The notes beneath the pieces are model-generated. The model was given only the letters and a program-made list of their open reading frames with translations, ran no database searches and was not told where the DNA came from. A program made the translations under genes and the position numbers. This document shows, piece by piece, positions 14,551 to 55,023 of a DNA stretch of 56,342 bases. How positions within the stretch are numbered: position 1 is the stretch's first letter; every line of letters starts with the position of its first letter. This stretch comes from Candidatus Zambryskiibacteriota bacterium (GTDB lineage: Bacteria; Patescibacteriota; Minisyncoccia; Phycocordibacterales; DATDWN01): positions 1 through 56,342 of the forward strand of contig JAHFOB010000004.1 of assembly GCA_023267045.1 (NCBI GenBank), given 5' to 3'.

Positions 14551-15702
14551 ATGATAGATCTAAAAGTAGTGAGCTCTGTATTAGCTCAACTAGAGGAAGA
14601 GCGTGGCATACCTCGAGAGAAAATTCTTGAGGCTATTGAGCTTGCCCTAGCTACTGCCTATAAAAAAGAGTATGGAAAGAAAGGACAGATTGTTCGAGCA
14701 AAATTTGATATGAATACTGGAAAATCTGAAATGTTCCAAGTAAAAATCGTCGTTGATGAAAGCACAGTTTTCATGGATGAGGATGAATTGTTAGAAAACG
14801 AAAGTGAACCTATCGTAGAAGGAGTTCCGGAAAAAGAACTATATAACTCTGAAAAACATATTTTGCTCTCCGATGCTCGTCGTATAAAAAAAGATGTAAA
14901 GCTCGGTGAAGAAATGATATTTCCCCTTGAAGGTCAGGAGGACTACAGTCGTATTGCCGCTCAAACAGCAAAACAGGTTATCATGCAGAAAATTCGTGAA
15001 GCAGAAAAAGTTTCTATCATGGCTCAATATGGACAAAGAGAGGGTGAAATAGTTACTGGAACTGTCCAAAGAATGGAGCGAGGAAATATTTTTGTTGATC
15101 TGGGAAGAGCCCCCGGCATACTGCCATACGAAGAACAAATTCCTGGAGAGAGATTTGGCCAAGGTGAGAGACTTCGATCATATCTATACAGAGTAGAGGA
15201 ATCAGGAAAAGGTGTCTTCCTACGACTTTCTCGTTCACATCCAAAGTTTTTGGAAAAACTTTTTGAAGTTGAAACGCCAGAAATTGCAAACGGAACTGTT
15301 GTCGTAAAAGCCGTTGCTCGTGAAGCCGGTAGCCGAACAAAAATCGCTGTCGCCTCAAAGGACTCTCACATCGACCCAGTTGGTTCAATGGTGGGTCAAC
15401 GTGGAGTGCGAGTTTCTACTGTTATGTCAGAATTGGGTGGAGAAAAAATAGATATTATTGAATGGTCTGAAAATCCAAAGAAGTTTATTGAGGATGCTCT
15501 CTCTCCTGCTAAAACAATCGAAGTTACAATAAATGAAGCGGAAAAACAAGCCACTGTCTTGGTTTCTGAAGATCAACAGTCACTTGCTATAGGAAAAGGT
15601 GGTCAAAACGTGCGACTTGCTGCAAAACTAACTGGTTGGAAAATAGATATTCAGTCTACAAATCCTAGAAAAGAAATTGCAGAAGAAACTCCTACTGAAT
15701 AA
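14551..15702 (+). CDS. nusA: Transcription termination/antitermination factor NusA
   Basis: 383 aa with an N-terminal NusA domain, S1 and two KH regions (GxxGxxV, IGKGGQNVRLA). Confidence 0.95.
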   Translation: MIDLKVVSSVLAQLEEERGIPREKILEAIELALATAYKKEYGKKGQIVRAKFDMNTGKSEMFQVKIVVDESTVFMDEDELLENESEPIVEGVPEKELYNSEKHILLSDARRIKKDVKLGEEMIFPLEGQEDYSRIAAQTAKQVIMQKIREAEKVSIMAQYGQREGEIVTGTVQRMERGNIFVDLGRAPGILPYEEQIPGERFGQGERLRSYLYRVEESGKGVFLRLSRSHPKFLEKLFEVETPEIANGTVVVKAVAREAGSRTKIAVASKDSHIDPVGSMVGQRGVRVSTVMSELGGEKIDIIEWSENPKKFIEDALSPAKTIEVTINEAEKQATVLVSEDQQSLAIGKGGQNVRLAAKLTGWKIDIQSTNPRKEIAEETPTE

Positions 15703-15861: not shown

Positions 15862-16377
15862 ATGAACTTAATAAAAGAAATCTCACCAGGAACAGCCGAA
15901 GAAATGAACGTCATTGTTGAAATAAACAAAGGCTCAAAAAACAAATACGAAATAGATAAAGAAACCGGACTTATCGCTCTGGATAGAGTAATGTACACTT
16001 CCCAAGACTATCCATACGATTATGGCTTTGTCCCCCAAACACTTTGGGACGACGGCGATCCGCTAGACGTCATCATACTAACAACTACTCCTCTCTTCCC
16101 TGGACTTTTAGTCAAGGTTCGCCCTGTTGCAATGATGGACATGGTGGATGACGGTGAAAGTGATGTCAAAATAATTGCCGTTCCAGTCAAAGACCCTCGC
16201 TGGGATGACGTTAAAGACTTGGTGGATGTAAATAAACACACCATAAAGGAAATGGAACATTTCTACAAAACATACAAAAACCTACAGAATAAAGAAGTAG
16301 TTGTTAAAGGTTTTTCTGGAAAAGACGAAGCAATGAAAGCCTTTAATAAGGCCATAGAATCCTACAAGAAAAAATAA
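15862..16377 (+). CDS. ppa: Inorganic pyrophosphatase
   Basis: MNLIKEISPGTAEEMNVIVEINKGSKNKYEIDKETG..., plus DGDPLDV. The track start at 15790 lies inside the hairpin repeat. Confidence 0.92.
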   Translation: MNLIKEISPGTAEEMNVIVEINKGSKNKYEIDKETGLIALDRVMYTSQDYPYDYGFVPQTLWDDGDPLDVIILTTTPLFPGLLVKVRPVAMMDMVDDGESDVKIIAVPVKDPRWDDVKDLVDVNKHTIKEMEHFYKTYKNLQNKEVVVKGFSGKDEAMKAFNKAIESYKKK

Positions 16378-22883: not shown

Positions 22884-22955
22884 CCCTGTAGTGAATTTTG
22901 GCATTGTGCTTCGCACAGCAAGGTAATCCTTGCAATGCCAAAATCTACTACGGGG
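22884..22955. repeat. Family 2 palindromic element (long form)
   Basis: ccctgtagtgaattttggcattg...caatgccaaaatctactacgggg. It belongs to the same family as 38409-38477 and 51608-51676, in inverted orientation. Confidence 0.8.
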
Positions 22956-28974: not shown

Positions 28975-29280
28975 TTATTTAGAATTCTCAGCAGAGACTT
29001 GGATTAACATTTGAAAATTGTCATCAGAAACCGCTTTATTTGGTTTTTCAAAACCACACTTCACGCATTTGTGAGTAATAATATATTCCTCGCCTTTTTT
29101 CTTTACACCAATCGGTTCCATCATTCCCCCACAGGTATTTAGTCTATCGCCTGGTGAAATATCAACATGCTTTGACCACAAACATTCTGGACAATGGTTC
29201 GTATACCCATTCCCAACCACAATAAAACCGCACCTCTCACACTTAAAGTTCTCGACATTTTTTATAAATTTACTAGACAT
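28975..29280 (-). CDS. RNHCP-domain zinc-ribbon protein
   Basis: FKCERCGF...GYTNHCPECLWSKHVD. Confidence 0.75.
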   Translation of the reverse strand: MSSKFIKNVENFKCERCGFIVVGNGYTNHCPECLWSKHVDISPGDRLNTCGGMMEPIGVKKKGEEYIITHKCVKCGFEKPNKAVSDDNFQMLIQVSAENSK

Positions 29281-29292
29281 AACACTTTCTTG

Positions 29293-29323
29293 CCCCGTAG
29301 TGAGCTATGCTCTACTACCAGGG
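29293..29323. repeat. Family 2 palindromic element (31-nt short form)
   Basis: ccccgtagtgagctatgctctactaccaggg. Confidence 0.8.
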
Positions 29324-29363
29324 TTACAGACAAAATTTTCTGTTGTTTTAGTGAAAGGCATAT

Positions 29364-36349: not shown

Positions 36350-36472
36350 TCAGCGTAGGCGGTTCTGGTTCTCTCGACGCTTTTGTCGTAAAGCGAAGGA
36401 GAGCTCCAAACCAGCCTTAACCCCCAAAAGAACCACAACGAACTGGAAGAAAACTAGAAACTGTTCCTGCAT
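36350..36472 (-). CDS. GC-rich 40-aa membrane peptide candidate
   Basis: Own translation: MQEQFLVFFQFVVVLLGVKAGLELSFALRQKRRENQNRLR. SD gagaggt lies upstream. The terminator is aaggtcgcttccc...gggaagcgacctt (36311-36345). Confidence 0.35.
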   Translation of the reverse strand: MQEQFLVFFQFVVVLLGVKAGLELSFALRQKRRENQNRLR

Positions 36473-36561
36473 GGTTACCTCTCTTCTAGTGTTATATCAT
36501 AGAAAATTACTTGTGGAAATAATTCAGGCCACCTATCGAATTGCAATAGGTGGCCTGAGAG

Positions 36562-36786
36562 CTACGACGCGCGGCGACGAAGAGCTTCGTCCATGTACTC
36601 CTCGGCCTCTTTCTTCTGACCGAGTTGCCAGAGATAGCCGGCGTGACTGAGAATCGCGCTGTCCGTCTCCGGACGCGACCAATAATCCCGACGACTTGTA
36701 CCCTGCCAGACCAATCGAGCGCCATTGGCCCAGGAGCTCTGAACAACAACTGTCCCGACCCCACGAACTTGTGAAAACTGTGGCAT
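36562..36786 (-). CDS. GC-rich 74-aa hypothetical protein
   Basis: GGAGGT lies 5 nt before ATG 36786 (MPQFSQVRGVG...YLWQLGQKKEAEEYMDEALRRRAS). A hairpin terminator aggccacctat...ataggtggcct follows. Two other overlapping frames in the track are taken as GC artefacts. Confidence 0.45.
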   Translation of the reverse strand: MPQFSQVRGVGTVVVQSSWANGARLVWQGTSRRDYWSRPETDSAILSHAGYLWQLGQKKEAEEYMDEALRRRAS

Positions 36787-36803
36787 AGCCACCTCCGATG
36801 TAT

Positions 36804-36832
36804 ATGATACCATATGTAAGATTAGCTGTCAA
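36804..36832 (-). promoter_or_regulatory. Promoter TTGACA-17-TATCAT
   Basis: The rc reads cTTGACAgctaatcttacatatggTATCAT. The -35-proximal part (ttgacagcta) matches the promoters at 11.7 kb and 20.1 kb. Confidence 0.6.
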
Positions 36833-38095: not shown

Positions 38096-38163
38096 AAATT
38101 TACAAAAACCGCCAAGAGGCGGTTTTTGCTTGACTCTAAAAATGTTGGGTATAAAATAATAAG

Positions 38164-38376
38164 GTCCTGTCGGAAGCAATGCGAGTCGATAGCTTACCAG
38201 GCGGTAAGCGTCGAAAACAGAACACCTGAAAGGGCAGTGGGGGAACTTCCGCGTGCTGATCACCCACCCCCACTGTCCCGATCGGGTTAGTTCTTTAGAA
38301 AATTCTGGTGATTCCATTACAATTCGCTCTGCGAGCGAACAACCGATTCTCATTTTTTGGGAATTCGGTTTTTTAT
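38164..38376 (+). ncRNA. Candidate GC-rich structured RNA (R3), strand uncertain, family unknown
   Basis: Plus-strand TTGACT(38130-38135)-16-TAAAAT. Hairpins: tcgatagcttacc/ggtaagcgtcga, gggcagtggggg/cccccactgtccc and ttcgctc/gagcgaa. The terminator hairpin aaccgattc...gaattcggtt is followed by TTTTT (38341-38375). Confidence 0.3.
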
Positions 38377-38408
38377 TTAGCAAAACTTTGTTACAATTAG
38401 TCTAAATG

Positions 38409-38537
38409 CCCCGTAGTAGAAGTTGGCATTGCAAAGTGTACTTTGCTAGAAAACCAAATGCCAACTTCACTACAGGGCTTAGCCCTGTAGTGAGCTAGGC
38501 TCTACTACCACGGGCTATCCCGTAGTGAAAATGACAT
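38409..38537. repeat. Composite of family 2 palindromes: 69-nt long form, nested 32-nt short form, then the arm atcccgtagtgaaaatgacat
   Basis: 38409-38477 matches 51608-51676 with only 3 substitutions. 38483-38514 is a short form absent from the 51.6-kb copy. Confidence 0.85.
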
Positions 38538-38620
38538 TTGAAATAAAATTATGTATATAAATATAAAATGGTCGATATTAGTGATGAATAATAAAGAAAA
38601 AATGGCCAGCTCTTTGAGCT

Positions 38621-39505
38621 ATGTCATTTTCTACTAACGGAATGCCCCCTGAACAAAAAGATCCTAGAATTCCTATAAAATCTCTTCGAACATACCAGGG
38701 AGATGTGGAAGAAGCGCTACACAAAAACAATCTTGGCACTACAAATATATTTGTTGCTGAACAAAAAAGAAAAGAGAAAGAACCTGTTGATCTAAAACAG
38801 CAAGAAGTAAAAACTGAAAATAGAAATAAATTTTTTGTGACTATCGGTATTTCTCTATTTATACTTGGGATAATCGCCGTTGGTGGTGTTTACTATTTAA
38901 AAAATAAAGAACAGGTTGTGGTTATCCAGAAAACCAAAGCCCTGATTAGTTTTTCGCAAGAAAAGGATTTTGTGATTGAAAATTCTACCCGAGCAAAACT
39001 TTCATCTGAAATATTGTCGGAAAATAAATCTTTCAAATTGCCACCGAATTCTGTTCTGTATATAAACACCACAACAGCAAAAGGCGATAAAGCTGATGTC
39101 TCGAGTGTTCTCACCACACTTGCACCAGCTATGCCGGCTTCACTTGAGCGAGCTTTTGAAGGCGAGTACATGATAGGAGTGTATTCTTTTGATAAAAACT
39201 CACCGTTTATTATTCTTTCTACAAAAGATTTTGGCAGTAGTTGGAGTGGAATGCTCAAATGGGAAAAAGATATTGTTAGTGATTTAGGAAAAATATTTGA
39301 AGTTCCAGAAGACAGCTCAACTGTAAGCGGAGTCTGGGCTGATAAAGCTTTGAAAAATAAGGATTTGCGAATTTTGAAAGATAGTAACAAGAACACGGTT
39401 CTATTGTATTCGTTTATAGATAAAAACACTTTGGTCATAACAAGAAATGAGGCTATTTTCAGTGCTGTTTTGGGTAAATATGTAATAAGTCAGCAGGAAA
39501 GATAA
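38621..39505 (+). CDS. Membrane-anchored hypothetical protein
   Basis: 294 aa with one TM segment (FFVTIGISLFILGIIAVGGVYYL). The start is ambiguous between ATG 38621 and ATG 38642, because the first 21 nt form a hairpin arm. Confidence 0.6.
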   Translation: MSFSTNGMPPEQKDPRIPIKSLRTYQGDVEEALHKNNLGTTNIFVAEQKRKEKEPVDLKQQEVKTENRNKFFVTIGISLFILGIIAVGGVYYLKNKEQVVVIQKTKALISFSQEKDFVIENSTRAKLSSEILSENKSFKLPPNSVLYINTTTAKGDKADVSSVLTTLAPAMPASLERAFEGEYMIGVYSFDKNSPFIILSTKDFGSSWSGMLKWEKDIVSDLGKIFEVPEDSSTVSGVWADKALKNKDLRILKDSNKNTVLLYSFIDKNTLVITRNEAIFSAVLGKYVISQQER

Positions 39506-43680: not shown

Positions 43681-45670
43681 GAATTATCTAGAAAACCTGA
43701 ACGAAAACCAGAAAAAAGCTGTTTTAACTACTGAAGGACCCGTTTTGATCGTAGCTGGTGCTGGAGCTGGCAAAACCAAGACTATAACTCACAGAATTTT
43801 ACATCTAATACTGAACGGGATCTCACCGGAGAGAATTTTGGCTATAACTTTTACAAACAAAGCAGCTAAAGAAATGCGGGATAGGGTTTTACAATTGCTC
43901 AGATTCGAATATGGAGAGCGCTCGCCCCGTAGCGAGCTCCGCTCTGCTACCGGGGTGCCATTTGTCAGCACATTTCACTCACTAGGAGTACAAATTCTGA
44001 AAGAAAATGCCGAATTGTTAAAACTGCCACGACATTTCAATATTTTTGATACAGCCGACTCAAAAAAAGCTCTGAAAGAAGCAATGCTCCACCTCGGCAT
44101 AGACCCGAAAGAAAATTTGGATAAGGTCAGGCATATTATTTCTAACGAAAAAGGTAGAGGAGTGACTGTATCTGAATATCTAGAAAGGGGGGCTTTTGAC
44201 TTTACATCAGAACTTGTAAAAAAAACGTGGGCAAAATACGAAGAGATATTGAATAAAGAAAAAGCTTTGGATTTTGATGATTTACTATTAAAAACTTTGA
44301 AACTCCTACAAAAATATCCTGATATTTTGGAGAAATACCAAGAAAGATTTTTATACATACACGTAGACGAATACCAAGACACAAACAAAGTCCAGAATTA
44401 TATTGTTGACCTTTTAGCTAGGAAATATAGAAATCTGTGTGTTGTTGGAGATACAGATCAAAATATTTATAGTTGGCGAGGAGCAGAAATAAAAAACATG
44501 TTGCATTTCGAAAAAACCTACCCGGAAGTCCAGACTTTTTTTCTCGAACAGAACTATCGTTCGACAAAAAACATCTTGGCCGTTGCAAATGAAATAATCG
44601 AAAAAAATAATTTTCGCATTCCGAAAAAACTTTTTACAGAAAAAGAAGCTGGAGAAAAAATTGGCCTGTTTGAAGGAAGAAGTGAAGTAGATGAAGCACA
44701 TTTTATCGCTTTAAAATCAAAGGAGTTGATAGATGGTGGGGAAAAAGCAGAGGAGATAGCCGTTCTATACAGAGCCAATTTTCAGTCACGCGTATTGGAG
44801 GAAGCTTTTTTGGCCTACGGTGTTCCATACCAAATGCTAGGCACAAAGTTTTTTGAAAGAAAAGAAATCAAAGATGTTTTGAGTTTTATAAAAGCATCGC
44901 TCAATCCAGAAAGTCTGAGTGACTTGACTCGAATTATAAATATTCCTGCTAGAGGTATCGGAAAAACTACTTTACAAAAAATTATTTCTGGAAAAGAATC
45001 TGAATTGCCAGAAAGTATGAAAATAAAAATAAATAATTTCCGAAATATACTTAATGATTTCAAAAATGTCTTGACCAGCCAAAAACCAAGTGATGCTTTG
45101 AAATATATTATAAAAACTTCTGGAATGGAAAATATGTACAACACTGGATTGGAAGAAGATACTGATAGACTAGAAAACGTCATGGAACTTGTGACCCTTG
45201 CCACAGGATACGATATATACCCAGCAGAAGACCCCGAAGTAGAGCAAGCTCACTACGGGGCAAGCGGAATTGAAAAATTTTTGACTGACTCGGCCTTGGC
45301 TACGGACCAAGACGCTCTAGATCAACCAAAAAATGGTGTGAAACTGATGACTGTCCACTCATCAAAAGGTCTTGAATTCGACTACGTTTTCGTCTCTGGT
45401 ATGGAAGCTGATCTTTTTCCCCATACAAAAATGAATCGTGTAAAAAAATCTGGTGAAGAGGCTGAAGAGGAGAGACGACTTTTTTATGTTGCGGTCACTC
45501 GAGCCGGTAAAAAACTTTTCTTGACCTATGCCAGAGTACGGACTATATTTGGGACAATGGAAGTAAATTCTCCATCAGAGTTTCTAGACGATATCCCTGC
45601 AAAATACACAGAGCAAGAATCTTTTGTTGGAGAAACGCCAAGAAAAGCCATATTCAGTATAGATTTCTAA
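43679..45670 (+). CDS. pcrA: ATP-dependent DNA helicase PcrA/UvrD
   Basis: 663 aa with motifs AGAGAGKTKT, TFTNKAAKEM, VDEYQDTN, GDTDQNIYSWRGA, QNYRS, MTVHSSKGLEF and YVAVTRA. Confidence 0.92.
   Translation: MNYLENLNENQKKAVLTTEGPVLIVAGAGAGKTKTITHRILHLILNGISPERILAITFTNKAAKEMRDRVLQLLRFEYGERSPRSELRSATGVPFVSTFHSLGVQILKENAELLKLPRHFNIFDTADSKKALKEAMLHLGIDPKENLDKVRHIISNEKGRGVTVSEYLERGAFDFTSELVKKTWAKYEEILNKEKALDFDDLLLKTLKLLQKYPDILEKYQERFLYIHVDEYQDTNKVQNYIVDLLARKYRNLCVVGDTDQNIYSWRGAEIKNMLHFEKTYPEVQTFFLEQNYRSTKNILAVANEIIEKNNFRIPKKLFTEKEAGEKIGLFEGRSEVDEAHFIALKSKELIDGGEKAEEIAVLYRANFQSRVLEEAFLAYGVPYQMLGTKFFERKEIKDVLSFIKASLNPESLSDLTRIINIPARGIGKTTLQKIISGKESELPESMKIKINNFRNILNDFKNVLTSQKPSDALKYIIKTSGMENMYNTGLEEDTDRLENVMELVTLATGYDIYPAEDPEVEQAHYGASGIEKFLTDSALATDQDALDQPKNGVKLMTVHSSKGLEFDYVFVSGMEADLFPHTKMNRVKKSGEEAEEERRLFYVAVTRAGKKLFLTYARVRTIFGTMEVNSPSEFLDDIPAKYTEQESFVGETPRKAIFSIDF
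43925..43955. repeat. Family 2 short palindrome located in-frame inside pcrA (copy 1)
   Basis: ccccgtagcgagctccgctctgctaccgggg encodes PRSELRSATG between helicase motifs Ia and Ib. Confidence 0.75.
45232..45260. repeat. Family 2 short palindrome located in-frame inside pcrA (copy 2, inverted)
   Basis: ccccgaagtagagcaagctcactacgggg encodes PEVEQAHYG. Confidence 0.75.
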
Positions 45671-49041: not shown

Positions 49042-51603
49042 ATGTCTTTTTTAAGCCGAATAAACCGCACTAAAAAACTATTCGTAGGAAGTATGATTTT
49101 TCTGTCTGTTTTTCTGATTTTCCCAAATAAAACCCACGCGCAATACGTAGATATAGCTAACAATATAAAAGAATACGTTGCAGACCCATTTGCATATCAA
49201 GTTGCAAATCAACTTTTAAAAAAAATGACGGCTTCAACTATAAAATGGATCAATGGTGGTTTTAAGGGTAAACCTGCCTACGTCCAGGACCCAAGCCAGT
49301 TTTTTCTAGACACTGCAGATGACGCAGCTTCTTTGGTGTTATCTAACACTAGCCTAAATCGTCTTTGTGCTCCATTTAACCCACAGGTTAGGTTAGCCTT
49401 AGTTAAAAACTACATAAATCAAGACCAGAATTTCTGTACATTAAGCAAAGTGAAAGATAATTATGATCAATTCACCCAAGATTTTTCTCAAGGTGGTTGG
49501 GACGGTTGGTTTGAGATAACTCAAAATAGCAGCAACAATCCATACGGAGCGTATTTAAACATCCAATCTGAAATAAATAAAACGATTGATTCTCAAACAA
49601 AAAAATACAGCGATCAATTGCTTCAAGGTAATGGAGTCTTGTCATTTGAAACATGCAAACCAGGCACCCAAATCACCCAAGCAGAAGTTGACCAGGGTTA
49701 TGTGGTGGACACGCCAGGTCATCGTCTTTATATCACTAACCAAAAAGCAGGTGATTGTTTTATCCAGAATAAACAGACTTCAACTCCTGGAAGTGTCATA
49801 GAATCCCAACTAAATGAAGTTCTTGGTAGTGCAAACGGAAAATTGAAAGTCGCTGATGAAGTAAATGAAATTATAGGAGCAGCTCTTAGTGAAGCAGCTA
49901 CCCTTGCTCTAGGTAAAGCCGGTGGTCTATTTGGAGGAAGTAAAAAAACAAGCGGAAGCCAAACATTGGCAGACAAGTTGGCTACAGAACCTCAAGACCC
50001 ATTACCAAATTCAAGTGCGGGAAATGTTGGGTCTGTAACAGGTAGTATGACTTGTGTACAACAACCAGATAAAACTGACAATAATGGAAATACAATTCAC
50101 GGGCAAATGTCTTGTGTTATCAACACAGGAAAAGCTGACCTGTGCCCAGTCTCACCAAACGCTCGTGGCAATGACCCTGGAGCACCAAACTCTGTCGATG
50201 TAACAAAAGTAGTTTGGAATCAAGCCAATCTATCAACATGGATAGGGCCAGGACTTGTTGCAGGCGTTGGGGCTAATTTAAATAATGTTGGTGCTGATCA
50301 AAATCTCATACACTTCGACTATACAACTCCAAACTGGCCTGCTTTTGATATTGGGAACGGTCCATCAAATCCTGCTTTAGCTAGTACATGGGTTTTTGTC
50401 TGGAGAAAAGATACTGCTACAACCATTGCAATAAATGATGATGTAAGAAGTAAACTTATAGACTTAGAAAATGCTCTTTCTGTTGATGTTGCAAGTCGCC
50501 CGGGTTTTCTAAGTTCAACTTCATTAAGAACTTGGTTCCTCAGCCCTAACATCTGGCCACAAGTTGGAGATAATGATGGGGGATTACTTGGTTCTAACTC
50601 TGTCAAACCAAAAACAGATAGGTATCAAAATATTCTTAATGCTGTCTCAGACGCGGAGGATTTTGTTAAATTTTATACAATAGATGACCCAAATCAAGAC
50701 CCGAAACCATGGAATTTTATTTCTGGTGAAATTGCAAATTTAGAGACAGAAACAGATAAAACCACGACTTTGTTTAATGATATTAGAAACAATAATGGTC
50801 ACACAAACCAAACTGTAAAAGCTATAGATTTCGCAAAAATGGAAGGCTATGCAAAAACAACTATCCCTGCAATTGATGCTTTGCTAGCCAAAATCGATCT
50901 TCTATTAAACCCTCCACCTGCTGGAACAGGAAAGTGGAATGCCTATCCATTTAGTTATCTATTCCAAAACAGACCGAACGACGTTAGTACTGGAGATATT
51001 TTCTGTTCACCTCCTGATTTCAAACCAACTGCTGGTGAAACTTATGGATTTATGATTTCAACCCCAGCAGGAAGCCAAGCTGTTATAGATGACCAACAAA
51101 ACTTGAAAGAAAAAAGTAATATTATTCAGTATGTTTGGCCTGATGGAATAAAAAAGCCAGCACCTGGGACTCCAACACTACCTGATATTACTATCCCCCC
51201 AGATTTTGGAACTGGGGGTGGTGGCACGTACGCAACGTGTGCAGATACACCTACAGCTTTGGCATGTTCCGCATCAAACCAGACTGCTTTAGTTGACAGA
51301 GTTATAAATTATGTTCGATCGGCAGGTATTTATAACTTTATACCAAAAACAGCAGACTGGTGTGGAAAATATGAGATTGTTCGACGTGTAGCCTGTACGC
51401 TAGGGACTGGGGTACTTGTTTCCTACCATAGCAGTAGTTGCAACGGTATAGATGGCAGATATATTGCTTTTTCAGATAATTCTGAACTGAAAGTTCTTAA
51501 TGACAATGGGTCAACATGGGATCCTGGACCCCCTGGGACGGAGTACCCTGGAGTACGTTACCAAGCGCCAGATTGCCCTAATGATCCACCAGGAAGTTAT
51601 TGA
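49042..51603 (+). CDS. Large secreted hypothetical protein (T4SS-like cluster)
   Basis: Signal peptide MSFLSRINRTKKLFVGSMIFLSVFLIFPNKTHAQ; 853 aa from ATG 49042; Cys- and Pro-rich C-terminal part. Confidence 0.6.
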   Translation: MSFLSRINRTKKLFVGSMIFLSVFLIFPNKTHAQYVDIANNIKEYVADPFAYQVANQLLKKMTASTIKWINGGFKGKPAYVQDPSQFFLDTADDAASLVLSNTSLNRLCAPFNPQVRLALVKNYINQDQNFCTLSKVKDNYDQFTQDFSQGGWDGWFEITQNSSNNPYGAYLNIQSEINKTIDSQTKKYSDQLLQGNGVLSFETCKPGTQITQAEVDQGYVVDTPGHRLYITNQKAGDCFIQNKQTSTPGSVIESQLNEVLGSANGKLKVADEVNEIIGAALSEAATLALGKAGGLFGGSKKTSGSQTLADKLATEPQDPLPNSSAGNVGSVTGSMTCVQQPDKTDNNGNTIHGQMSCVINTGKADLCPVSPNARGNDPGAPNSVDVTKVVWNQANLSTWIGPGLVAGVGANLNNVGADQNLIHFDYTTPNWPAFDIGNGPSNPALASTWVFVWRKDTATTIAINDDVRSKLIDLENALSVDVASRPGFLSSTSLRTWFLSPNIWPQVGDNDGGLLGSNSVKPKTDRYQNILNAVSDAEDFVKFYTIDDPNQDPKPWNFISGEIANLETETDKTTTLFNDIRNNNGHTNQTVKAIDFAKMEGYAKTTIPAIDALLAKIDLLLNPPPAGTGKWNAYPFSYLFQNRPNDVSTGDIFCSPPDFKPTAGETYGFMISTPAGSQAVIDDQQNLKEKSNIIQYVWPDGIKKPAPGTPTLPDITIPPDFGTGGGGTYATCADTPTALACSASNQTALVDRVINYVRSAGIYNFIPKTADWCGKYEIVRRVACTLGTGVLVSYHSSSCNGIDGRYIAFSDNSELKVLNDNGSTWDPGPPGTEYPGVRYQAPDCPNDPPGSY

Positions 51604-51607
51604 AATG

Positions 51608-51699
51608 CCCCGTAGTAGAAGTTGGCATTGCAAAGAGTACTTTGCAAGAAAACAAAATGCCAACTTCACTACAGGGCTATCCCGTAGTGAAAATGACAT
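51608..51699. repeat. Family 2 long palindrome plus the arm atcccgtagtgaaaatgacat (paralogous to 38409-38537)
   Basis: It starts 4 nt after the stop codon at 51601-51603. Confidence 0.85.
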
Positions 51700-51802
51700 G
51701 AAGAAATACAAAAAATAAAAAATGAATGAGTCAGTAACAAAAAAACATAGTGGTGATAAAAAATATTCCGTTCTACGAACTATGTCATTTTCTACTATCG
51801 GG

Positions 51803-53905
51803 ATGAAAAAGTTTTTACCCTACATTTTAATGTTTGTAATAGCAGTCGGGTTTTTTAATCCATCATTAGCTGGTGCAGCTTCAGCATACGAAAACTGTGT
51901 AGCTGAAAATAGAGTGCTTGCGGAAACTGCAAGTGATGGCACTGTATACCAAGACTGTAGCCGTTTGCCCGGAGCACCGTCAGATGCATATAAACCAACA
52001 AGTTTAGGGTCGGCAATTTTTGGTGGAAGTGGAGCCGATTGTGGGTTATCTCCCACAACATGGGCTACGTGTTTCTCGCATCTTTTTGTCTGGATCTCCT
52101 ACTTGATTTTAGGACTCGTATCTCTAGTACTTTGGATGGCAGGCGTTCTACTGGATTATGTTTTGAAATACACCATACTCGGAATGTCAGAAAATATAAA
52201 AAATCTAGCTGGAATAAACATTGCATGGAAAACAATAAAAGACTTGATGAACATATTGTTTATATTCCTTTTAGTATACGAAGGAATACTGCTCATAATA
52301 GGCCAAAGTGATGTCGGTAAAATCAGAAAGTTTATTACAGGAATTGTGTTAGCTGCTCTTCTCATAAACTTCAGTTTATTTTTTACAAAAGTTTTGATAG
52401 ATGCTTCAAATATAGTAACTATAGGATTTTATAATTCTATCATTGCTCAATCTTCGGAAGTCGTTAATCCATCAGCAAATTACAACAGCACAACTGGTAA
52501 TATTGACCAAGCTATAAGTACTGGAACGATAAGCGGGCTTTCAGTACCTTTCATGAAAGCTCTTGGAGTTTCTAGTTTCTTTTCAAAAGAAAGTATTAGC
52601 CAGATGAGTTCAAACTCTGGTGGTGATACAAACCTTATAATAATAGGCCTTGCAGGATCAATTCTATTTCTCATTGTCTCTTTTGTTTTTTTTGCAGTTT
52701 CTATGATGTTTATAATAAGATACATCGCTCTTATTGTGCTTCTAATGCTGTCGCCAATCGCATATATGGGGATGGCTCTGCCTTTCATGCAAAAATATGC
52801 TAAGGAATGGTGGGAATCTCTCCAAGGACAGTTACTCTTTGCCCCAGTGTATATGCTCATGACTTGGGTTGTATTAACTTTAATGTTTAGCGGTGGTTTT
52901 ATAACTCAAGCTGGACCAGACGGTTGGTCAAAACTGCTTGTAGGGAGTAATGGAGCCGGAAGCCAAGGTTCAATTTCTCTTTTATTTAATTTTGTTGTAA
53001 TTATTGGGCTCATAATAACAACTCTGGTTATATCAAAAAATATAGCCAAAAAAGGCTCTGACCTCATATCAAGTGCTACAAAAAATCTCACGGCATTTGC
53101 AGGCGGAAAAATTGTCGGTGGAGCTGCAAAAATTGGTAGAAGTACTGTTGGAGCAGCGGGCCAGGCTGTTGCTAACAATCAGTGGCTTCGAGAAAGAGCC
53201 CCTGATAGTAGACTGGCACGTACAGCACTTTCTCTTGGATCAAAAACGGGATCAGCAAGCTTTGATGCTAGAGCAACCAGTAGTTTTGGAGCATTAACAG
53301 ATAAAACAGGTGTAAAAGTTGGTAAAGCTGGAGGAAAAGGTGGGTATCAGAAAGATAGAGAGGATAAAATAAATAAAAGAATGGAATTCTTCGAGAAAAA
53401 TGTTATGGCAGATACCATAACCGGTAACAATGTTGAGAATGAAATGACTAATAGAAGGTGGAATAGTCTTGCAGATTACAATTACTTACAAAATACTGTT
53501 GGATTGAGTGGTGCACAAATTGCGTCTATTAATGCTACTGGTACAAGTAAAAATCAGATTGAAGCACTCGGTATAAACGCACGCCAAGCTGAACTTATGA
53601 GACGAAGAGTACAAACAGATCTCAACCGCGCTTCAGAACAAGAGAACTTAAACAGAAAAGATAGGTATCTACATAATCTTAGTCAAACACATTGGTATAC
53701 ACCTAATTTGTATAGTGGAGTTTCTGAAGATGCTGAAGCGGCGAAAAGGATGAGGGATAATAAAAAAGCTAAAAAAGGAGGCAAGGATAAGATCCTAGCA
53801 GATCTTGCGGCAGTGTTAAAAGAAGAGGAACCTGAGACGACCCCACCAACAGGAGGAGCACCGACAACTCCAACACCTCCCGCAGCAGGAGGAACAACAC
53901 CATGA
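51803..53905 (+). CDS. Polytopic membrane protein, VirB6/TrbL-like by architecture and context
   Basis: A signal or anchor MKKFLPYILMFVIAVGFFNPSLAGA, at least 6 hydrophobic segments and a hydrophilic C-terminal tail ending in PTTPTPPAAGGTTP. The stop overlaps the next ATG (ATGA). Confidence 0.5.
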   Translation: MKKFLPYILMFVIAVGFFNPSLAGAASAYENCVAENRVLAETASDGTVYQDCSRLPGAPSDAYKPTSLGSAIFGGSGADCGLSPTTWATCFSHLFVWISYLILGLVSLVLWMAGVLLDYVLKYTILGMSENIKNLAGINIAWKTIKDLMNILFIFLLVYEGILLIIGQSDVGKIRKFITGIVLAALLINFSLFFTKVLIDASNIVTIGFYNSIIAQSSEVVNPSANYNSTTGNIDQAISTGTISGLSVPFMKALGVSSFFSKESISQMSSNSGGDTNLIIIGLAGSILFLIVSFVFFAVSMMFIIRYIALIVLLMLSPIAYMGMALPFMQKYAKEWWESLQGQLLFAPVYMLMTWVVLTLMFSGGFITQAGPDGWSKLLVGSNGAGSQGSISLLFNFVVIIGLIITTLVISKNIAKKGSDLISSATKNLTAFAGGKIVGGAAKIGRSTVGAAGQAVANNQWLRERAPDSRLARTALSLGSKTGSASFDARATSSFGALTDKTGVKVGKAGGKGGYQKDREDKINKRMEFFEKNVMADTITGNNVENEMTNRRWNSLADYNYLQNTVGLSGAQIASINATGTSKNQIEALGINARQAELMRRRVQTDLNRASEQENLNRKDRYLHNLSQTHWYTPNLYSGVSEDAEAAKRMRDNKKAKKGGKDKILADLAAVLKEEEPETTPPTGGAPTTPTPPAAGGTTP

Positions 53906-55023
53906 TTACAGAAACAGAAAAAATAATCAAAGAAAGAGTCAATAAATTACCATCTGGAGTGTTAATTGCTATTAAGAGTATTTCTTTGGAAGAAAAAATG
54001 AAAGTCGTAGCAAAAAATAATAATTTAAATGAAGAACAGGAAGAATTATTCGCAACAGAAACTACCCTTGTAATATTAGGAATTGAATCGCCAGAAAAAT
54101 ACCCTGATAACCTAGCAGATAATGTTGGCTTAGATGATAAAACAGTTGTAAAAATCGCCAAAGAAGTTGATGAACAAATTCTTACACCAATACTGGAAAT
54201 GGTTGAGAAAAATAAAAAAATAATTTCTCAAAAGCCAAATTCTGAAAAATCTTACGGAAATACACAAAATATCTCCACAGGAGTTAAAGAAAGAGTTATT
54301 GAAATTGCAGTAAAATATGGACTAGATAAAAACCAAGAAAATGCTTTGGTTACGCTTGCCCTATCTGTAATTTCAAACCCAGAAGAAAAAGGTCTACTGC
54401 AGAATAATATATCTCAAACTCTAAAAATATCTGGCTTGATGGCGGAACAAATAGTAAGTGACTTAGAAAAAAGAGTTTTCAGTCAACAGGTAAAATTAGA
54501 AAAAATTCCCGACAAAAAACCAACAGAAAATAAACCTGTTGAAACAAAAATTCCTGAAGTGAAACCCACAAACTTGCCTATGGTTGAGAAAAATGAGGTA
54601 GCACATGATGTAAAAAAAGATAGTAGCGAGGGATCAGTAGCTAGTAGCAAGGAAAATACTACAGAACCAGATATGTCAAAGAGACACTTTGACATTGAAC
54701 AAACACCGCCTCCTGTGCCAAAACCTGTTATGCCAGCTCCAGTATACAAACCTGATATTCCAGAGCCAGTACAAAGACCTTTTTCTGTGCCTAGAATAAT
54801 CCCAGTAGTAGAGCAAAGCTCACTACGGGACACGGTTACAATGCCAAAAGAAGAAGAAATGACCAAACCCCAAAGCCCAATGACCAATGAGGATGCGAAA
54901 CCTGTTCAGAATATGATGAATGATAAAATGACAAAAGTAACAACGGGTATGTCAGAAAAACCCAAACCGGACGAACCACCAAAGAAATACAGTGCTGATC
55001 CATATAGAGAACCGTTGGAGTAA
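53902..55023 (+). CDS. Hypothetical protein with a Pro/Lys-rich C-terminal half (T4SS-like cluster)
   Basis: 373 aa, translationally coupled to the upstream gene. Confidence 0.55.
   Translation: MITETEKIIKERVNKLPSGVLIAIKSISLEEKMKVVAKNNNLNEEQEELFATETTLVILGIESPEKYPDNLADNVGLDDKTVVKIAKEVDEQILTPILEMVEKNKKIISQKPNSEKSYGNTQNISTGVKERVIEIAVKYGLDKNQENALVTLALSVISNPEEKGLLQNNISQTLKISGLMAEQIVSDLEKRVFSQQVKLEKIPDKKPTENKPVETKIPEVKPTNLPMVEKNEVAHDVKKDSSEGSVASSKENTTEPDMSKRHFDIEQTPPPVPKPVMPAPVYKPDIPEPVQRPFSVPRIIPVVEQSSLRDTVTMPKEEEMTKPQSPMTNEDAKPVQNMMNDKMTKVTTGMSEKPKPDEPPKKYSADPYREPLE
54801..54829. repeat. Family 2 short palindrome located in-frame inside the 373-aa ORF
   Basis: cccagtagtagagcaaagctcactacggg encodes PVVEQSSLR. 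Confidence 0.7.

Follow-up and report, generated by a model that had tools for sequence, protein, structure and literature searches.

Short repeats of several kinds resemble the elements described below. Bacterial MITEs that are co-transcribed with genes include Correia/NEMIS, ERIC and the RPE of Rickettsia. Work on REPs and REPINs, and on the RAYT transposases, was reportedly carried out by Bertels and Rainey in 2011. The GTAG REPs are imperfect palindromes of 20-40 nt with covarying stems, found in clusters and as inverted dimers 1-5 bp apart; one end of their stem-loop bears a GTAG tag that is left unpaired, and they have copies in replication and repair genes (PMC3733652). For another type of repeat, SRM, the published consensus is HGTCWYN(0-2)YYVSBRH... 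(Chenal et al. 2025, PMC11893778). The partners of these NTS/SRM repeats, the Ssn nucleases, are single-domain GIY-YIG enzymes of CDD cd10448 that cut single-stranded DNA at the repeat, and their genes have the repeats in their flanks. A literature search returned no paper on repeats of the present sort in CPR, and none on hairpin-ended start-codon elements carrying an 84-aa GIY-YIG gene.

The window, i.e. the whole stretch of 56,342 nt of Candidatus Zambryskiibacteriota DNA that was analysed, contains 10 units built on one common foot (about 0.05 in shuffled sequences), which amounts to one unit per ~5.6 kb. Three are long (~70 nt), five are short (~31 nt) and two belong to a larger class, called here the L form (~125 nt; 38517-38643 and 51679-51804), which has the same foot and was missed in the preliminary description of this DNA. 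When put in a common orientation, the units read 5' CCCY-GTAGTGA...TCTACTAC-(0-3 nt)-GGG 3', and the foot pair can also be spelled CCCYGTAGTGA/TCTACTACNGGG. In full, the foot is 5' (G)CCCY-GTAGT-GA ... TC-T-ACTAC-(T)-GGGG(T) 3', its 3' arm having one T bulged out; the GTAG of the foot is base-paired to CTAC within a 14-bp interrupted stem. What had been counted as two mismatches between the arms is actually a single C.A mismatch, which becomes T.G when the opposite strand is read, and a one-base bulge (A or, on that opposite strand, T). Exact foot pairs (GTAGTGA..TCTACTA) were counted and binned by interior length: three had an interior of 5-35 nt (short; 0.02 expected by chance), three an interior of 36-66 nt (long; 0.01 by chance) and two an interior of 90-120 nt (L; 0.00 by chance), the total of 10 including two degenerate copies in pcrA that were gained by allowing mismatches. 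The short form consists of the foot closed by GC-NNN-GC, so the earlier view of it as essentially just the termini was right. In the long form the foot is extended by a covarying arm of 9-12 bp and a covarying inner hairpin, and in the L form by an arm similar to that of the long form and a loop of ~80 nt. No Rfam family matched the window elements or, at E<=0.1, the neighbouring GC-rich islands.

All the positions initially given for the long copies (38409-38477, 51608-51676 and, inverted, 22884-22955) and for the short ones (29293-29323, 38483-38514 and three copies in coding sequences) check out. The solitary long form (22884-22955, + strand, 72 nt) starts 5 nt past the clpP stop codon and has TTTGA on both flanks; it is the only copy noted in the window to be followed by TTTT. 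A solitary short form with the 5' extension CTTG (29289-29324, + strand, hairpin 29293-29323) is antisense to the flanking genes and lies 12 nt 5' of the start codon of an RNHCP-domain gene. That gene (28975-29280; Pfam 1.8e-29) has its 5' untranslated region occupied, in antisense, by the short form. Three of the five short units are within genes: two lie in pcrA, one on the + strand (43925-43955) with a compensatory GTAGC/GCTAC change, the other in the opposite orientation (45232-45260, - strand), and the third is in the ORF 53902-55023 (54801-54829, - strand). The pcrA copies were considered as clean insertions and rejected as such: in comparison with the 76%-identical PcrA of a relative, L177, each site is a hypervariable loop, and there is no clean gap because the L177 loops hold other palindromic or GC-rich sequence. 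In L177 pcrA (14960-15010, 16270-16370), one loop has another palindrome, GGTCTGACCTT...AAGGTCAGACC, and the other a GC-rich insert 17 aa longer. The two pcrA loops look like hot spots for several families of repeats.

The other units are grouped in two composites. At 38.4 kb, the original copy of a start codon (ATG at 38406-38408, + strand), placed behind a conserved TTTGTTACAAT box, is followed by a 69-nt long form (38409-38477, - strand) which is the first unit of the composite, then by a 37-nt short unit (38480-38516, + strand, hairpin 38483-38514) which is absent from the 51.6-kb paralogue, and then by an L form (38517-38643, + strand) with arms AAAATGACAT/ATGTCATTTT and an A/T-rich loop of 83 nt. 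The final AT of the L form is part of a rebuilt ATG (38642-38644, + strand), the true start of the downstream gene, where its homologues start MPPE. At 51.6 kb, an ATG (51605-51607, + strand) lying one base past the upstream TGA stop (51601-51603) precedes a long form (51608-51676, - strand), 96% identical to 38409-38477, and an L form (51679-51804, + strand) ending ...CGGGAT just before a G and containing a spare in-frame ATG (MSFSTIG-M). The rebuilt ATG (51803-51805, + strand) is there that of a polytopic membrane-protein gene (MKKFLPYIL...) with a signal-peptide-like start. Both L forms of the window add MSFST(N/I)G in frame to the downstream genes. The idea of a small peptide encoded by the composite was rejected, since the reading frames differ among copies. 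Folding gave three consecutive hairpins at 38.4 kb (z=-8.0) and two at 51.6 kb (z=-8.2).

Alignment of the two loci reduces their difference to a single clean block of 37 nt (38480-38516), present at 38.4 kb and flanked by GGGCT (38475-38479 and 38512-38516): they are identical up to ...CACTACAGGGCT, and again after the block at ATCCCGTAGTGAAAATGACAT. The block comprises the hairpin, preceded by a 5' extension of 4 nt and followed by a single base, and its limits are the unit boundaries that were derived independently from 120 copies in other genomes. Because of this exact match, an insertion at 38.4 kb is favoured, loss of the block by deletion from the 51.6-kb copy being formally possible. 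The preliminary description spoke of a nested insertion at this place; the extra short unit is real, but it sits between the long form and the L form and is not nested in the long form.

Orthologous loci bear directly on the insertion reading. Three relatives (L171, L172 and L174; labels of this kind denote loci of other genomes and are distinct from the L form), in which the order rpsO-NYN-gene-dksA-like-comM is kept as in the window, read ...TTTGTTACAAT(N7-9)ATG-CCNCC, i.e. they are devoid of the composite 38409-38644. The three empty sites are TTTGTTACAATTAGCAAG-ATG-CCCCCAGAA, TTTGTTACAATTAATCGG-ATG-CCGCCTGAA and TTTGTTATAATATTTTCAA-ATG-CCTCCAGAA, and the occupied site of the window is TTTGTTACAATTAGTCTAA-ATG-(233 nt with three hairpins)-ATG-CCCCCTGAA. 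Relative to the same three loci the window thus has 236 extra bases, closing with the second ATG, and the gap between the NYN gene and the next gene is 546 nt versus 72-170 nt. Since the gene of the relatives starts at the ATG that is duplicated in the window, the whole 38.4-kb composite is a start-codon insertion with ATG on both sides; the 51.6-kb composite likewise lies between two ATGs (51605-51607 and 51803-51805). The clpP-rny gap has no long form in L179, L180 and L181; in L180 that place, immediately 5' of the conserved rny promoter TTGACTTA, is taken by a terminator. Finally, L177 shares 21 kb of synteny with the window and has zero units. Comparison of these orthologous sites shows, at the sequence level, that the units are lineage-specific insertions. 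Insertion had initially been argued from the paralogues; it is now supported by empty sites in relatives, found both for the 38.4-kb composite and for the clpP-rny long form, and by the absence of units from L177.

Some other features of this region may be mentioned. A conserved box, TTTGTTA(C/T)AAT, is present 7-9 nt 5' of the ATG in all orthologues (window, 38385-38408; L171, 2980-3003; L172, 1410-1427; L174, 2980-3003); its position so close to the ATG suggests that the composite was inserted in the context of a leaderless or nearly leaderless transcript. Two GC-rich, hairpin-filled stretches without credible ORFs (38130-38376 and 36470-36830) are found beside rpsO and the NYN gene, and L174 has a GC-rich structured stretch after its NYN gene (2860-2960), in the same position as in the window. 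The assembled contigs of the DNA runs X1 and X2 end at the repeats.

Additional copies beyond the window, which the preliminary description led one to expect, are plentiful. The core of the short unit, GTAGTGAGC-N2-4-GCTCTACTAC, was detected in at least 117 blocks of 8 kb from species-representative genomes, the estimate by chance being ~13. Among the matches listed, nearly all are from Patescibacteria (Kazan, Paceibacterota, Saccharibacteria, Nomura-, Zambryski-, Uhr-, Magasanik-, Wolfe-, Falkow-, Lloyd- and Liptonbacteria) and some from Flavobacteriaceae; the same matches comprise five blocks from Bacteroidota as well as a few MAGs that bear the label Gammaproteobacteria. The consensus of the short unit is (G)C(C/T)TG-CCCC-GTAGTGAGC-TTT-GCTCTACTAC-T-GGGG-T. 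Its outer stem covaries (pair 4 is CG in 77 copies and TA in 29; pair 5 is G.T in 60, GC in 22 and AT in 17) and takes a CCAA/TTGG version in flavobacteria, while the 22-nt core is letter-for-letter constant throughout the superphylum and into Flavobacteriaceae. In seven long forms from five organisms, compensatory double changes affect 10 of the 27 consensus pairs; they fall in the arms and in the inner hairpin adjoining the 3' arm, the foot pairs being invariant. An invariant foot amid covarying pairs suggests that single-stranded DNA in its folded form is read in a sequence-specific way. Two leads were dropped: a search of viral contigs with the generic foot pattern, almost all matches being due to chance, and an apparent association with translation GTPase genes, an artefact of clustering a large family.

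The orientation of the units relative to transcription is mixed. Between co-directional genes 34 units are antisense versus 19 sense, within long ORFs 13 are sense versus 11 antisense, and the best-folding strand is antisense more often than sense. All wobble pairs are G.T on a single defined strand, whatever the direction of transcription. That the wobbles are one-stranded yet the orientation mixed agrees with selection acting on a DNA strand in its folded form and not on mRNA. The DNA-level element proposed at the outset from the inconstant orientation is supported by the mixed orientation, by the intragenic copies and by the confinement of the G.T wobbles to one strand. The consensus has a single T after the stem and no U-tract; many short copies lie ~10 nt 5' of a start codon.

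The best surviving alternative is that the hairpin is a signal used by the host and spread mainly by recombination or gene conversion, not by transposition: for instance as a terminator, as an element that stabilises mRNA or, in the manner of NTS with SsnA, as the recognition site of a chromosomal single-strand nuclease by which DNA uptake or recombination is modulated. A core kept constant from the superphylum to Flavobacteriaceae would suit a host signal, as would the short copies close to start codons, the solitary long form with its TTTT at the position of a clpP terminator, and the flavobacterial hairpin standing beside a stand-alone GIY-YIG gene (see below) in the way that SRM repeats stand beside ssnA (PMC11893778). 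We nevertheless find it unlikely, because the orientation is mixed and the best-folding strand more often antisense, the consensus is without U-tract, copies occur within genes, presence or absence differs among syntenic relatives, and the hairpin departs from the consensus published for SRM, HGTCWY...; moreover, use by the host would be compatible with mobility. The palindromes of the window are, as far as their sequences can tell, very probably one family of mobile DNA hairpins.

The way in which the units are assembled is also recurrent. Inverted (-)(+) dimers with spacers of 2-5 nt were found in the window and at L117, L178, L090, L100, L126, L124 and L151, and pile-ups lie exactly at a start codon, with an ATG retained on both flanks. 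The recurrent composite, i.e. ATG, then a short or long form (-), CT, AT-L(+)-AT and G, is met in other organisms as well. At L117, 5' of rplY, it has a short form where others have a long one, which makes short and long forms interchangeable modules. At L178 (720-1250), 5' of a small membrane-protein gene, the long(-)+L(+) composite is repeated three times in tandem with a period of 179 nt, each repeat closing with ATG; the arms and the inner hairpin of the long form are there compensatorily changed, and the L loop contains TTGACA-16-TATAAT and an in-frame ATG. More long(-)+L copies, terminating in ...GGGATG with other genes behind them, are present in the source metagenome, where the L loops measure 35-80 nt. 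Among 120 copies, flanking direct repeats of at least 5 nt were observed 19 times versus 8.7 expected, with lengths of 5-14 nt; those at the window units vary: the composites have ATG, the inserted short unit GGGCT and the solitary long form TTTGA. No uniform target duplication is apparent among the 120 copies.

This arrangement raises the question of REP/REPIN-type repeats moved by a RAYT (a Y1 HUH tyrosine transposase), with GTAG as the REP tag and the inverted dimers as the mobile form. The GTAG/CTAC of the foot, the 31-nt size of the units, the dimers 2-5 nt apart and the copies in repair genes are all features described for GTAG REPs (PMC3733652), the apparent lack of a fixed target duplication is in keeping with them, and a Y1_Tnp gene is present in the Paceibacterota block L063 (Pfam 9e-11). 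Three facts make RAYT-driven movement quite improbable: GTAG is paired within the stem instead of forming an unpaired terminal tag; the L063 gene, the sole Y1 gene in the at least 117 blocks, has another hairpin, ATGTCAAAGTGTCTCTTTGACA, on either side; and a Y1-like ORF is neither present in the window nor recurrent among the neighbours of the hairpin. In this Paceibacterota MAG the Y1_Tnp gene (~393-1028) is IS200-like/RAYT-like and the ATGTCAAAGTGTCTCTTTGACA hairpins are at 387-410 and 1028-1048; the locus resembles a REPtron-type unit that has a distinct repeat of its own. As to segmental duplication of one locus alone, with no mobility of the element, for which the common layout of the two window composites and the 179-nt tandem of L178 could be quoted, it can be dismissed, since the flanking genes are unrelated, the L loops have strongly diverged with identical arms and feet, and single units are present in eight contexts of the window, with at least 117 blocks from other genomes also having units; locus alignment, wide spread and empty sites all contradict it. 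The preliminary description had named it as a case that would undo its reading.

For a family of mobile hairpins, an enzyme has to be sought. Neither a GIY-YIG nor a Y1-transposase ORF, nor any transposase, is encoded in the window, and the autonomous partner for which the preliminary description advised a search, a transposase gene with the same termini, was found neither there, nor in the at least 117 blocks, nor in a scan of the metagenome. A candidate of another type is provided by Eudoraea, Winogradskyella and Lentiprolixibacter, where an inverted doublet of the exact hairpin is located ~100 nt upstream of a gene for a 92-aa GIY-YIG protein. This flavobacterial protein matches Pfam PF01541 at 4e-14 and is 46% identical to a CPR nuclease; 1zg2 and 1ywl are the PDB relatives, of UPF0213, and NCBIfam has no model matching the GIY-YIG proteins. 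Some GIY-YIG genes or hairpin doublets adjoin tRNA sequence: in Eudoraea (L124, 1530-1660) the doublet comes directly after the CCA end of a tRNA, at L067 a partial tRNA 3' end precedes the doublet, as at an integration site, and in a Patescibacteria MAG (L155, 2720-2810) a tRNA abuts the GIY-YIG gene.

Sister elements that carry the gene between their feet were found at three loci. At L184, an 84-aa GIY-YIG gene lies inside a perfect 11-bp inverted repeat, CCCCGTTAGAT/ATCTAACGGGG; this element sits between a stop and a start codon and has TAAAT on both flanks. L185 has a feet-only mini hairpin of 32 nt and further copies of the foot heaped beside the coding copy. At L104 (5335-5613), a GIY-YIG gene is frameshifted and enclosed by TCCCGTTAGAT...ATCTAATGGGA, with the AbiEi gene on one side, the AbiEii gene on the other and a short form 1 kb away; intact relatives of its product are 84-aa proteins, with 396 matches, mostly on very short contigs. 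The stop codon of the upstream gene is inside the foot of the L104 element, and the AbiEi/AbiEii-like genes are a toxin-antitoxin pair. The feet of the coding copies (CCCCGTTAGAT/ATCTAACGGGG at L184 and L185, TCCCGTTAGAT at L104) are similar, not identical, to that of the window. The 3' foot of the window equals the sister foot plus CT, ATCTA[CT]ACGGGG, and translation of the 3' arm of the L form gives HFLLSG-stop in the reading frame that, for the nuclease, terminates in NYLTG-stop; on account of these two features, descent of the L form from a GIY-YIG coding element is plausible. A coding copy with the exact window feet was found neither in the window, nor in the at least 117 core-bearing blocks, nor among the other L copies of the source metagenome, and the sole match in the metagenome scan for a 270-300-nt copy with L arms is the non-coding tandem of L178. 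None of 270 GIY-YIG proteins has a foot-coded end of the HFLLSG type, and none of the best 150 cluster representatives ends HFLLSG. Among ~105 CPR blocks listed, a GIY-YIG gene is near a short form in four, in non-adjacent positions, a number compatible with chance; at the CPR blocks L149 and L155 the gene is not flanked by the hairpin.

From the above comparisons, the GIY-YIG nuclease is a credible candidate for the enzyme that moves the hairpins, falling just short of an even chance. One defined strand would fold as single-stranded DNA, and its foot would be recognised by a sequence-specific protein, most likely the ~84-aa GIY-YIG nuclease whose gene is in the loop of the CCCCGTTAGAT/ATCTAACGGGG sister elements. 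After cleavage and repair or copying, new units would go beside existing feet or to start-codon-like sites, and the short and long forms would be deletion derivatives that have kept only what the enzyme needs. Taken as a whole, the statement that the palindromes are a mobile hairpin family, that the size classes are versions of one foot and that a GIY-YIG nuclease is the most likely enzyme seems to us somewhat more likely than not. A stricter formulation is more speculative, and we consider it somewhat doubtful: the 31-nt foot-only hairpin would be the minimal substrate of a transposition-like process carried out by the 84-aa nuclease, and, jointly, the enzyme would read one folded DNA strand, units would be placed beside feet to give inverted dimers or at start codons with the ATG restored, the short, long, L and coding forms would make one graded series, and nuclease and hairpin would together have passed from Patescibacteria to Flavobacteriaceae.

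To our knowledge, GIY-YIG nuclease chemistry is absent from the recognised prokaryotic transposases. If such a nuclease does move the hairpins, it would represent a new transposition chemistry as well as a compact tool acting on single-strand DNA. CPR genomes are tiny and tightly packed, yet some of the units lie within the gene of an essential helicase and others precisely at start codons. Three subjects that are usually treated apart meet in this family, namely hairpins of the REP kind, elements of the MITE kind and a small GIY-YIG nuclease. The putative enzyme-substrate pair is testable, the hairpin being beside the nuclease gene in cultured Lentiprolixibacter aurantiacus M415; it is also present in cultured Robiginitalea marina 2V75.

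How does the family compare with known systems? Intrinsic terminators combine a GC-rich hairpin with a U-run and are oriented with transcription; the family lacks this combination. With the REP/REPIN/BIME group it shares a short imperfect palindrome in many dispersed copies (five short units are in the window, and the core is in at least 117 other blocks), a GTAG motif, covarying stems, inverted dimers, copies in replication and repair genes and the apparent lack of a classical target duplication. Unlike REPs, it has its GTAG base-paired in the stem, three size classes (31, ~70 and ~125 nt) and pile-ups exactly on start codons, and it has no linked RAYT, the sole Y1 gene in the at least 117 blocks having other flanking hairpins. 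The likeness to Ssn/NTS/SRM repeats lies in the oriented hairpin of ~30 nt with non-palindromic features, in the many copies, in the strand-specific fold that is implied and in the small single-domain GIY-YIG gene beside the repeats at the three Flavobacteriaceae loci. However, the foot starts CCCYGTAG, with no GTC head, and so falls outside the SRM consensus, and the CPR nuclease gene is inside hairpin-ended start-codon elements instead of being a host gene flanked by repeats.

The designation "MITE-like" used in the preliminary description calls for some refinement: the units are non-autonomous mobile hairpins, but no fixed target duplication is apparent and no transposase with the same ends was found in the window, the at least 117 blocks or the metagenome. 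Like bacterial MITEs, they form hairpins, are intergenic with occasional in-frame genic copies and can bring promoter-like sequences; the differences are that no IS parent with a DDE transposase goes with them, that their target duplication does not appear to be fixed and that their smallest unit, 31 nt, is far below the size of a MITE. The hairpin-ended GIY-YIG elements share with the family a foot of the CCCCGT...ACGGGG type, feet-only mini hairpins beside coding copies (L184, L185) and a location between stop and start codon with the start signal repeated, as met at both window composites. They differ in that the window foot is 2-3 bases longer (GTAGTGA/TCTACTAC versus GTTAGAT/ATCTAAC) and that no coding copy with the window foot was found in the window, the at least 117 blocks or the metagenome. 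To conclude, the feet-only units, the inverted dimers and the pile-ups ally the family, by analogy, more with REP/REPIN/BIME or Ssn-type repeats than with a MITE derived from an IS: in kind, the element is a variant of the hairpin-repeat families and not a classical MITE.
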